From an uncultured bacterium (lineage in GTDB: Bacteria > Cyanobacteriota > Vampirovibrionia > Gastranaerophilales > Gastranaerophilaceae): a stretch of DNA of 64,000 nt. Positions within the stretch are counted from its first letter, which is position 1. The number at the start of each line of letters is the position of its first letter. The notes under the pieces are model-generated. The model was not told the DNA's origin and searched no databases. It worked only from the letters and a program-made list of their open reading frames with translations. The translations under genes and the position numbers were made by a program. The stretch lies in contig CACWZA010000011.1 of assembly GCA_902765215.1 (NCBI GenBank), positions 10,897 to 74,896 on the forward strand. Direction: 5' to 3'. Shown here piece by piece: positions 40,084-42,035 of the stretch.

Positions 40084-41061
40084 ATGCAAGTTTTATCTAT
40101 AAATCAAGCATTGCCTAAATGTTTGGTTACGAACAATACACACAAATCAAACCAACACACCGACAGAAAAATTTCTGTGGGGTATCCTTGCAATGATATA
40201 AATTACCTTATTTTTACAAGCAAATTAAGTGAAAAACCTCAAAAATTATCCGTTGAAATACAAAAAGCTTTTGATTCAAAAGATATAAAAGCAAAGAAAA
40301 ACTATTTCAAAAACCTTGCGGATAATCACAGTCTGATATTAAGAAACTGCAGTGATAACGAATATATCAAGACTGTTCAGGTTCTTTTGGATAATATAAA
40401 ATATGACCGAAAAGAGGGAAAAGATTTGTTTGAAAACCAAATAAATCTCTTATCCGCATCTGTCAGACCAAATGTAGGCATGGAAAAATACATAAACCCT
40501 GACAACTTCAACAAGAACTTCAAAGATTTTATCTATGATGATGACGGCGTTATAAACAAGATTGAAAGAATACTGAAAATAACTACCGCAAAAGATACAA
40601 AACTTGCACTTGATGTTAACTCACATTCAAAGTATCCGATTAATGTTCTGAGTAATTTTGCAAAAACCGATTTTGAGCTTGACGGGGTTAAGATAAAATC
40701 TATGGAAGGGTTTTTACAGTCACTCAAAACCCCAAACAAAGAAGAACAGAAATATATCTGCTCATTAGACGGACTAAAAGCAAAGGGTATGGGCAAAAAA
40801 CTCAATAAACAACGCAACTATGATTTCAAACATCTGTTCTGGCAGGGGAAAAAAATAGACAGAAAAAGCAAAGAATATCAGGAGCTTTTAAAATCGGCAT
40901 ATAATGAGAGATTTAAAAACGATGAAGATTTCAGATTTGCACTTGAGTATACAAAAGATTATGAACTTACACACAAAATCGGAGAAGATGACCCTAAACG
41001 AACTTTATTAACCACAAAAGAGTTTGTGGGCTTACTTAACGGGCTCAGACAGAATATTTAA
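40084..41061 (+). CDS. NADAR (YbiA/DUF1768)-like putative ADP-ribosyl hydrolase with a ~180-aa unknown N-terminal domain
   Basis: 325 aa. Residues ~183-325 read VLSNFAKTDFELDGVKIKSMEGFLQSLK ... RFKNDEDFRFALEYTKDYELTH ... EFVGLLNGLR. They parallel E. coli YbiA FSNFAAWPIKVDGKTWPTSEHYFQAQK ... KFEQHAELRALLLATAPAKLVEH ... LGYLLMELR. Confidence 0.6.
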   Translation: MQVLSINQALPKCLVTNNTHKSNQHTDRKISVGYPCNDINYLIFTSKLSEKPQKLSVEIQKAFDSKDIKAKKNYFKNLADNHSLILRNCSDNEYIKTVQVLLDNIKYDRKEGKDLFENQINLLSASVRPNVGMEKYINPDNFNKNFKDFIYDDDGVINKIERILKITTAKDTKLALDVNSHSKYPINVLSNFAKTDFELDGVKIKSMEGFLQSLKTPNKEEQKYICSLDGLKAKGMGKKLNKQRNYDFKHLFWQGKKIDRKSKEYQELLKSAYNERFKNDEDFRFALEYTKDYELTHKIGEDDPKRTLLTTKEFVGLLNGLRQNI

Positions 41062-42035
41062 TGAAGATATTTCAGGGTTATAAACAAACGCCCGTCCTGT
41101 ATTGAACCTTCAACCAGTTCGTATTCTGATGTGCTCGGAAGCAGCATCTCTTTTTGAGAGAAGAATTTGTTCTTACTTCCTATCATCTTGTTTACATCAA
41201 TACCTTTGCATTTTCCCTCAGTACCGACTATTTTGATAAAACATTTATCTGCATAGTCGTAATCTTTTGTCAGAACCTCCAAATCACTTGTTGTTGAAAA
41301 CAGGTGGTTAGGACAATATTTTACTGACTTAGACGGGTTTTGTTGTTTTTCTATCGCAAGACTCAGCAAACGCTTAATCTCATCTTCGCTCTGTTCCCCT
41401 CTGTATAAGACAGACTCCTGAATACAACCGCTTTGGGAATTTATAAACTTGTTTATTTTCTTTGTATTTTCAAACAAATTATTTTTATCTTTCTCTTTAA
41501 ATACAGCCAGTTTATTAACATATTCTTCAACCATATGTTTTATGGTAGCTTCAGGCTCTAACTTAACCTTGCCGTCTGAAATCTGAAGCAATTCTTCACT
41601 ACCGCGGCACTTAATTGCCTTTTCTGCAGAAATCCCTGCACCGACCATTTCCTCAATCTTTGATATTTCTTCAAACGAATACAAATCGCCTGTCGATTTT
41701 ATCTTTTTTGCAAGTTCTTTATCACCAACACAGTAAAGTGCGTCTTTCATTTCCTGCATAGATTTTTCAAACTCTCTTACATAATGAACACGGTTAAAAA
41801 ACCCTGTATTTGTGAACCCAATCTCTGATTTTTCAGCAACAGGAAGTGTTAAAACCGACTTTGAAAGCTCTGAATCTTTAACAAACATTTTCGCAAGTGT
41901 TTGCGGCGCACAAGACAGCAAATCCGCACCCTGAACAGGAGATTCAACACATTTTAATTCTTTTTTTAAAATGCCCGAGTCCTTTGCAGTGCGAATAATC
42001 AATTCACTGACATTGTTAATGCGCGGTTGTATCAT
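41058..42035 (-). CDS. C3/pierisin-like (R-S-QxE) mono-ADP-ribosyltransferase with a ~195-aa unknown N-terminal domain
   Basis: 325 aa, no signal peptide. VLY-R212-G, F-S247-T-T-S and Q294-K-E296-MLLPSTSEY occur in canonical order and spacing (35 and 47 aa). As I recall the C3 exoenzyme catalytic segment, it reads Q-L-E-VLLPRHSTY. Confidence 0.65.
   Translation of the reverse strand: MIQPRINNVSELIIRTAKDSGILKKELKCVESPVQGADLLSCAPQTLAKMFVKDSELSKSVLTLPVAEKSEIGFTNTGFFNRVHYVREFEKSMQEMKDALYCVGDKELAKKIKSTGDLYSFEEISKIEEMVGAGISAEKAIKCRGSEELLQISDGKVKLEPEATIKHMVEEYVNKLAVFKEKDKNNLFENTKKINKFINSQSGCIQESVLYRGEQSEDEIKRLLSLAIEKQQNPSKSVKYCPNHLFSTTSDLEVLTKDYDYADKCFIKIVGTEGKCKGIDVNKMIGSKNKFFSQKEMLLPSTSEYELVEGSIQDGRLFITLKYLH

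Follow-up and report, generated by a model that had tools for sequence, protein, structure and literature searches.

Two converging genes in a 64,000-nucleotide (nt) stretch of contig CACWZA010000011.1 from an uncultured member of the Gastranaerophilaceae (hereafter the window) encode an R-S-QxE mono-ADP-ribosyltransferase (ART) and a protein in which a NADAR ADP-ribosyl-glycohydrolase domain follows a domain that we call X, and we consider it likely that the pair is a toxin/antidote (writer/eraser) module with X-NADAR as a bifunctional antidote. As the writer, the ART would use NAD+ to add ADP-ribose, most likely at the exocyclic N2 of guanine in DNA and/or RNA, while the NADAR domain as the eraser would cut ADP-ribose off guanine. 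X would add a second, probably stoichiometric protection, which parallels the toxin-binding N-terminal module of Tri1. A linked writer and eraser had already been proposed in the initial annotation of this DNA, and the proposal is strengthened here by catalytic residues that are conserved on both sides, by fold and profile evidence, and by the adjacency of the two genes in other loci. The genes and the features within them are listed below, with residues given as amino acid (aa) numbers.

40084..41061, plus strand: X-NADAR fusion gene, 325 aa, predicted bifunctional antidote, with an AAGGA ribosome-binding site 7 nt upstream
40225..40605, plus strand: X domain, aa ~48-174, helical and of no known family; aa 1-49 are variable and low-confidence
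40609..41055, plus strand: phage-type NADAR (gp30.3/AdfN) ADP-ribosyl-glycohydrolase domain, aa 176-324, with a PF08010 match
40705..40728, plus strand: E208 codon (40705-40707) to K215 codon (40726-40728), predicted catalytic Glu and Lys in the invariant motif S-x-EGFLQSLK
40972..40974, plus strand: H297 codon, candidate for the characteristic His of phage NADARs, aligning with H123 of T4 gp30.3
41058..41061, either strand: TTAA common to both convergent stop codons
41058..42035, minus strand: ART gene, encoding a predicted toxin of 325 aa of the R-S-QxE mono-ADP-ribosyltransferase type, with a variable, low-confidence stretch at aa 1-55
41061..41813, minus strand: conserved module of the ART, aa 75-325, in which the beta-core comes after a helical part
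41148..41156, minus strand: Q294-K295-E296 codons (QxE, in the ADP-ribosylating turn-turn (ARTT) loop); Q294 and E296 are invariant in alignments of 19 and 17 sequences
41289..41297, minus strand: S247-T248-T249 codons (S-T-[ST] motif); S247 is invariant, and the motif aligns with the STT of Scabin and TreX
41400..41402, minus strand: R212 codon (the R of R-S-E, in LYRGE), invariant in 17 sequences

The two 325-aa open reading frames (ORFs) and their common TTAA lie where the initial annotation had placed them, as the NADAR gene stops with the TAA at 41059-41061 and the ART gene with the reverse complement of 41058-41060. The equal length of the two proteins, which had been remarked upon, is a coincidence, since homologue lengths vary (313-326 aa in one set and 303-341 aa in the other). 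It had also been argued that no terminator fits between the genes. No terminator-like hairpin is found at the junction, where the RNA of both strands folds like shuffled sequence (z = 0.09 and -0.84, none significant).

The two genes are kept together far beyond the window. Contigs with homologues of either protein were scanned with three hidden Markov models (HMMs), for the ART, the NADAR domain and the N-terminal domain, and the loci show the following arrangements.

Window, L001, L002, L004, L008, L009, L010 and L019: ART and long NADAR convergent, 8 distinct loci
L013, L014, L015, L017, L018 and L021/L022: ART followed by a short NADAR (183-189 aa) on the same strand
L016: ART alone, with no NADAR adjoining

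A PF08010 NADAR adjoins the ART in 14 of the 15 distinct loci, and with their unrelated flanks these loci bear out the expectation that the genes would be found together in related genomes. Among the convergent loci the flanking genes differ in the five contexts examined. The adjacency holds over 28-71% ART identity and over two architectures, and the ARTs of the same-strand loci are 29-38% identical to the window ART where this was measured. The association was also recovered from the NADAR side (L021/L022), a metagenome scan with alignment A1 gave one further locus, and the pair is present in metagenome-assembled genomes named Candidatus Gastranaerophilales. The 3' ends in the convergent loci are spaced by -4, -11, -8, -4, -11, -4, +4 and +48 nt, i.e., they overlap by 4-11 nt in six loci and are separated by 4 or 48 nt in two. 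ART and NADAR lie on the same strand solely in distant relatives with a separate short NADAR gene. A classical type II/IV toxin-antitoxin operon was rejected as a description of the pair because it implies co-transcription, and ART and X-NADAR are convergent in the window and in seven further loci. The ART of the L016 lineage (P0081/P0082) keeps the R, STS and QxE motifs, and in L016 it is followed by a prephenate dehydrogenase gene.

From its sequence, we assign the minus-strand protein to a new and divergent family of R-S-QxE ARTs. The motifs quoted in the initial annotation, VLY-R212-G, F-S247-T-T-S and Q294-K-E296-MLLPSTSEY, are found at these residues. When 17 sequences (28-71% identity) are aligned and trimmed, just 14 of the 275 columns do not vary, R212, G213, S247, Q294 and E296 among them, and the R, S-T-[ST] and [QE]-x-E motifs are conserved and stand in the order that defines R-S-E enzymes. 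The QxE aligns with Q-V-E of Scabin, Q-Q-E of C3stau2 and E-A-E of TreX, and the AlphaFold2 (AF2) model places strands at residues 210-214 and 296-298. The earlier choice of the R-S-E clade over DarT is upheld by these motifs and by the lack of any DarT or DarTG match in Pfam, NCBIfam and PADLOC. The ART had also been described as confined to the C-terminal ~130 aa behind an N-terminal domain that could not be annotated. The motifs do lie there, but the conserved module is wider (aa ~75-325); profile matches to distant relatives span aa ~58-325, and Foldseek aligns the helices with the whole C3 fold.

Close homologues of the ART number seven in 5.8 billion clustered proteins. A profile search gave 17 representative matches in 1.84 billion proteins, a further search with the trimmed ART profile gained just two more sequences, and tblastn with the ART against phage and plasmid collections gave no match even at E<=1. 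Neither the single ART, for which TreX appears at E=1.2 (aa 243-308), nor profile A1 of the close family gave anything usable in sequence searches of the PDB. With the broader profile A3, 11 of the 12 PDB sequences returned are R-S-E ARTs or an entry named 'ADP-ribosyltransferase', including TreX (E=0.021), eight Scabin entries (from 0.054), C3stau2 (0.1) and 5zj4, and S-T-T, G[IV]DVNK and QxE are in register in the displayed alignments. The window ART itself does not match Pfam PF03496 (ADPrib_exo_Tox), for which the gathering score is 23.4 bits, while its relatives P0090 (23.2 bits, E=4.9e-5), P0081 (21.6), P0077 (21.4) and P0087 (21.4) fall just below this cutoff, with E values from 4.9e-5 to 1.7e-4. 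Matches to PF22596 (Scabin-like) are sub-threshold (E=0.078-0.095) in two or three family members, and membership of that family is not reached. The best fold matches of the ART model in BFVD are mostly ARTs too, and the top one, a phage 'Mono-ADP-ribosyltransferase C3', is likewise sub-threshold (E=0.011). The distant relatives, which keep the catalytic columns and approach the ART profiles, point firmly to an ART identity. T4 Alt was considered as a relative and rejected (hhalign against the ART profile, E=0.44, not significant).

The predicted hydrolase, judged by profile and pairwise alignments, is a phage-type NADAR of PF08010 (T4 gp30.3/AdfN) that is related to PF08719/YbiA at the superfamily level only. 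The NADAR/YbiA (DUF1768) assignment of the initial annotation is therefore right for the superfamily but not for the PF08719 family (E=0.063, 14 bits vs a cutoff of 35.1). Pfam PF08010 (Phage_30_3) matches aa 184-322 over profile positions 2-137 of 138 (E=1.4e-38, 132.2 bits, cutoff 36), and the domain matches phrog_652 of PHROG (E=6.4e-36) and is 38% identical to T4 gp30.3 over 151 residues (E=1e-29). A tblastn search with the NADAR domain found 1506 phage records, mostly T4-like, with 36-47% identity among the matches listed. Both motifs quoted earlier for this side are present in the plus-strand protein, VLSNFAKTDFELDGVKIKSMEGFLQSLK as aa 188-215 and RFKNDEDFRFALEYTKDYELTH as aa 276-297. 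E208 and K215 are invariant across 28 sequences and correspond to E36 and K43 of T4 AdfN in the pairwise alignment. H297 is nearly invariant among relatives, pairs with T4 H123 in sequence alignment and may be equivalent to E125 of PnNADAR; the Glu of YbiA-type enzymes is replaced by His in phage NADARs (Schuller 2023, PMC11543638). The AF2 model of the plus-strand protein has a mean predicted local distance difference test (pLDDT) score of 82.4, with values >90 over most of aa 180-325. Its top Foldseek match in the PDB is E. coli YbiA (2b3w, E=9.1e-4, probability 1.00, TM(target) 0.61), and model and match together establish the NADAR alpha+beta fold. Nine full-length relatives (P0008-P0016) share the two-domain architecture of this protein.

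T4 gp30.3, renamed AdfN, is a demonstrated DNA ADP-ribosyl-glycohydrolase in which E36 and K43 have been mutated and are important (PMC11825919), and its activity on guanine-ADP-ribose (G-ADPr) in DNA has been shown experimentally (PMC11825919, PMC11125620). The T4 enzyme strips G-ADPr made by the R-S-QxE enzyme ScARP, not ADP-ribosylated cytosine (C-ADPr), and guanine-linked ADP-ribose is hydrolysed by all four NADAR families (PMC12945103). Intermediates of the riboflavin pathway are further substrates of some NADAR family members. Most descriptions of T4-type NADARs come from T4-superfamily phages, and an origin from DarG1 has tentatively been assigned to them.

A weak match of the plus-strand protein to TIGR02464 (riboflavin-intermediate N-glycosidase, E=0.0079) might indicate that the adjacency is fortuitous, i.e., that the plus-strand ORF encodes a YbiA-like housekeeping enzyme, an N-glycosidase of riboflavin-pathway intermediates, and that the minus-strand ORF is no ART, and the window ART does lie below the cutoff of every ART model. 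We find this highly improbable, as the neighbours are kept across 28-71% identity and two architectures, the invariant columns fall on the ART catalytic residues, and the weak matches all converge on R-S-E ARTs with their motifs in register.

Cellular PF08010 proteins also occur in other forms. P0033, found on 61 contigs and named 'Cyanobacteriota bacterium', is an apparent tandem duplication of the NADAR domain, P0062 is a fusion of dihydrofolate reductase (PF00186) with NADAR, and P0048/P0057 are forms of ~389 aa with a C-terminal extension of ~200 aa. In L023/L024 (6001-6978), a PF08010 NADAR protein of 325 aa carries a different, unrelated N-terminal domain and is encoded near a gene for a TraG/TrwB-type coupling protein of type IV secretion systems. 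No ART of the window's family is found near it, and it may be an orphan on a conjugative element.

The third component, X, is fused to NADAR in some lineages and separate in others, and this constitutes Rosetta-stone evidence that X works with the system. In L015, L017, L018 and L021/L022 it is a stand-alone gene of 151-165 aa that directly follows the short NADAR gene but is read from the other strand, and the 3' ends of the two genes overlap by 0-8 nt. The HMM of the window's N-terminal domain detects the stand-alone X of L017 (E=5.9e-23), L015 (3.2e-10) and L018 (4.8e-10, all at Z=1e6), and the X copies of L020-L022 reach E=2.4e-32 with a combined model. X has no relatives in the PDB, Pfam or PHROGs. 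A relationship to T4 gp30.2 was searched for and not found, and one to the helical region of the ART was rejected (hhalign probability 1.2%). By comparison with the bifunctional immunity protein Tri1, X is most plausibly a second protective function, i.e., a stoichiometric binder or inhibitor of the ART.

The stand-alone genes also suggest how the layout of the window arose. The ancestral order was most likely three genes, ART and NADAR on one strand and X facing them on the other. Inversion of the NADAR gene in place would have brought it directly downstream of X on the X strand, and loss of the X stop codon would then have produced an X-NADAR fusion that converges on the ART with overlapping stops. 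The window's unusual convergent layout would thus be due to the fusion of the X gene to an inverted NADAR. The initial annotation had regarded the two N-terminal domains as unrelated to each other and as impossible to annotate, within an architecture it did not recognise. They are indeed mutually unrelated, but X can now be traced, the N-terminal part of the ART belongs to the conserved module, and the layout is accounted for as an X-NADAR fusion. Pairs of an ART with a NADAR have already been published with ARTs of other clades, so this architecture is a variant and not a new kind.

The sequences also contain signs of toxin behaviour. Compared with L022 (4970-5980), the ART of L020 (5247-5977) shows 21 differences over 1011 nt and is disrupted by a nonsense codon and two deletions of 1 nt each, while the NADAR of L020 is intact (6 differences in 567 nt, no indels) and so is its X (0 in 456); the L020 contig is present in four samples. 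Decay of a toxin with its antidote kept is a common pattern. The same evidence bears on the idea that the pair carries out an endogenous, regulatory and reversible modification of the cell's own nucleic acid, with no conflict system involved. Independent transcription of writer and eraser would make separate control possible, and precedents have been proposed for DarTG in Mycobacterium and ScARP/SCO5665 in Streptomyces. However, such a role sits poorly with an ART that is pseudogenised while NADAR and X are kept, with the rare and patchy distribution and variable genomic location of the pair, and with relatives whose ART is fused into large toxin-like proteins, and we deem it improbable.

These large relatives, P0078, P0079 and P0084, are proteins of 614-845 aa in which the ART module is the C-terminal domain. 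P0079 (L015, 10001-12439) and P0084 (812-845 aa) additionally have hydrophobic segments and a 'GDCxLLS' cysteine motif, and a similar motif occurs in L013 in a separate gene (2392-3045) downstream of the ART-NADAR pair. This motif may be calpain-like; Pfam shows no protease match in P0079 and P0084. Polymorphic secreted toxins are usually built in this way, with the toxin domain at the C-terminal end of a large protein. The family resembles a polymorphic-toxin effector and its immunity protein more closely than a classical co-transcribed toxin-antitoxin operon, and a role in interbacterial competition is a serious possibility, if somewhat short of an even one.

Several observations weigh against the toxin/antidote reading or against parts of it. 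The single ART sequence matches no Pfam family, its match to the NCBIfam model ADPrt_Strmyces (NF041482) is sub-threshold (E=0.016, 14.9 bits vs 250, aa 247-309), and its AF2 model (mean pLDDT 67.7) is poor around the STT (aa 245-261) and QxE (aa 289-298) segments, where pLDDT is <50. Nearly all of the 26 best Foldseek matches of this model in the PDB are C3bot, VIP2, C3lim, C3stau, Tre1 (6dre/6drh), Plx2a, Vis and a Listeria ART-ARH pair, but none is significant (E 0.04-0.9, best 0.039, probability <=0.92). The ART of L016 (8001-8999; lineage P0081/P0082) has neither NADAR nor X next to it. The window ART shows no signal peptide, Rhs, type VI secretion system (T6SS) or other delivery domain, and the PADLOC defence models match neither protein. 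The guanine target is proposed because the NADAR partner is of the G-ADPr-specific type, not from the ART sequence, and the C3 enzymes are QxE ARTs that modify asparagine in proteins. Finally, the role of X is assigned by pure analogy with Tri1.

The last points on the ART side lead to the alternative of a C3-like effector whose target is a protein of the host or of bacteria, e.g., a Rho-family GTPase, modified at asparagine or at some other residue, with the NADAR acting elsewhere or on an N-glycosidic protein linkage new to NADARs. C3bot, C3lim and C3stau are the best fold matches, the QxE-hLLPxxxxY/F motif resembles the C3 ARTT segment, and the hosts are gut-associated Gastranaerophilales. 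On the other hand, a host-directed effector would not need the linked eraser that is retained in 14 of 15 loci, and the nucleic-acid or protein adducts reported for NADARs are solely on nucleobases, G and in some families C. The profile matches to Scabin and TreX are also equally good, with the G[IV]DVNK segment in common. F291, three positions before Q294, aligns with the stacking Trp of Scabin in the profile alignment, and we do not take it as evidence on the target because C3bot presumably has a Phe at this position too. We therefore give the C3-like effector little credence.

The compact size of the window ART bears on another alternative, an intracellular toxin-antitoxin or abortive-infection module like DarTG1, in which X-NADAR restrains the ART until phage infection frees it to modify phage and host DNA, with no delivery to other cells. 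ARTs of the window's clade are ~325 aa and have no export or delivery domain, the chromosomal contexts differ, and in the window the pair lies between two integrated elements. DarT1-NADAR and YarT-YbiA are established toxin-antitoxin systems, and the counter-defence NADAR of T4-like phages fits the existence of bacterial guanine-ADP-ribosylating defences beyond DarT1. Nevertheless, PADLOC gives no match, the convergent genes are not transcribed together, the neighbours include no conserved defence-island genes, and in relatives the ART is found at the C-terminus of 614-845 aa proteins with hydrophobic segments and, in P0079/P0084, GDCxLLS. An intracellular defence is a plausible minority option on this evidence, nearly as likely as interbacterial competition.

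The initial annotation had placed the pair just outside a tRNA-Ser island, and indeed a 24-nt repeat of the tRNA-Ser 3' end terminates 60 nt before the plus-strand start codon. The repeat at 33842-33865 recurs exactly at 40000-40023, with a 75% copy at 34080-34103, and since the exact repeat brackets a low-GC insert of 6.2 kb (GC 0.26-0.32), this insert reaches almost to the pair. Its genes code for small membrane proteins, a tetratricopeptide repeat (TPR) lipoprotein-like protein and a TonB_C protein, with no integrase ORF seen among them, and it may be a decayed integrated element. On the other side, a 59-nt repeat (93% identical) of the 3' part of tRNA-Glu at 45436-45494 and 52538-52596 bounds an integrated element of ~7.1 kb with a tyrosine integrase (50984-52141, plus strand) and an AAA_14/DUF4143 ATPase (47114-48424, minus strand). 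The ART/X-NADAR pair, an RTX gene and a SIR2 gene lie between the tRNA-Glu element and the tRNA-Ser insert.

The RTX gene (42207-44585, plus strand) is divergent from the ART gene and encodes a 792-aa protein whose central block consists of calcium-binding RTX repeats (PF00353, E=1.6e-34) and whose N-terminal ~290 aa, which contain 'QYNNCGIDSTLNVL', have no annotation. Kinship of this protein with the N-terminal region of P0079 was rejected, as the best local match in a single pairwise comparison covers 41 residues (E=0.003) and lies elsewhere in the proteins. The SIR2 gene (44685-45236, plus strand) encodes a 183-aa Sir2-family protein whose best stretch, aa ~2-97, corresponds to about the first half of CobB-type profiles. 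The protein could be a minimal sirtuin or a truncated one; at 2.6 kb from the ART, it adds a second NAD+-using enzyme to the neighbourhood but is not conserved with the ART. Neither the SIR2 nor the RTX neighbour is repeated beside the pair in the other loci with genes listed, and this non-recurrence rules both out as parts of the module. At the other end of the region analyzed, a stop-free frame of >4022 codons (1-12066, minus strand) runs off the start of the window; with its signal-peptide-like N-terminus it belongs to a giant gene for a surface or secreted protein. Rfam finds nothing but two tRNAs across the window.

The closest known systems each share part of the proposed module. DarT1-NADAR (DarTG1; PMC11543638) likewise pairs an ART toxin with a NADAR that reverses guanine-N2 ADP-ribosylation as an enzymatic antidote. 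However, DarT1 belongs to the H-Y-E (diphtheria-toxin-like) clade, DarG1 NADARs carry Asp where phage-type NADARs carry His, and the two DarTG1 genes form a co-directional operon and lack a third partner, whereas the window has convergent genes and an X domain. Identity with DarTG1 was rejected because the window toxin is R-S-QxE and not H-Y-E and because Pfam, NCBIfam and PADLOC give no DarT/DarTG match. YarT-YbiA of myxobacteria (Cihlova et al. 2024, PMC11125620) is similar in combining a non-DarT ART with a NADAR-superfamily antitoxin, but YarT is a mini-ART of the H-Y-E/HYD1 clade akin to Rhs toxin tips, its antitoxin is of the YbiA type, and the system is operonic and has no third component. 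T4 gp30.3/AdfN shares PF08010 with the window domain, 38% identity over the whole domain, and the catalytic Glu, Lys and conserved His. It is an orphan phage counter-defence protein of ~150 aa, whereas the window domain is encoded on the chromosome, is joined to X and has an ART of its own as a partner.

ScARP/Scabin of the pierisin family and SCO5665 (PMC12945103) come nearest in chemistry, as an R-S-QxE ART modifies guanine and a NADAR erases the mark, and ScARP homologues are always accompanied by the NADAR SCO5665 in Actinomycetes (PMC12945103). ScARP (SCO5461) and SCO5665 nevertheless have distant locus numbers and are not described as an operon, the NADAR is of another family, and Scabin resembles the window ART family only marginally (E=0.054 with the family profile), its base-stacking Trp being Phe in the window ART. 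The C3 exoenzymes C3bot, C3lim and C3stau, the best fold matches, resemble the window ART in the hydrophobic LLP segment behind their QxE and in the helical N-terminal part that precedes the ART core. They are secreted, modify Asn41 of Rho and have no hydrolase partner, and their matches to the window ART are not significant.

In the literature searched, we found no description of an R-S-QxE ART with a T4-type NADAR and a third component, none of X, and no such toxin system for the Gastranaerophilales, which are uncultured gut relatives of cyanobacteria. A convergent layout has not been reported for ART-NADAR toxin/antidote pairs. The ART-NADAR field is very recent, with key papers from 2023-2026, and the known gene-linked pairs use H-Y-E toxins (DarT1, YarT), so that the present pair would be a tightly linked R-S-QxE case. 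It would also give the phage AdfN-type NADARs a cellular, toxin-associated counterpart and a testable alternative to an origin from DarG1. In its most far-reaching form, which we put forward tentatively and hold to be rather unlikely, the family would be an undescribed three-component system of ART, gp30.3-type NADAR and X, with a new family of guanine-specific nucleic-acid ART toxins in gut Melainabacteria, X as a dedicated inhibitor beside the eraser, the X-NADAR fusion as a NADAR-based equivalent of Tri1, and an AdfN clade that stems from, or shares ancestry with, its immunity genes and not DarG1.

The best analogy for X-NADAR is Tre1-Tri1 (Ting et al. 2018, via PMC11606950), where, as far as that account describes it, an R-S-E toxin is met by a bifunctional immunity protein. 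Tri1 is presented there as an N-terminal toxin-occluding module joined to a C-terminal ADP-ribosyl hydrolase (PMC11606950). In the same account, the hydrolase has the ADP-ribosylhydrolase (ARH, DraG-like) fold and acts on protein arginine, and Tre1 is an ExE enzyme delivered by a T6SS, whereas the window pair combines QxE with NADAR. X, separate or fused, hints at a second means of protection of a non-enzymatic kind, similar to that of Tri1.

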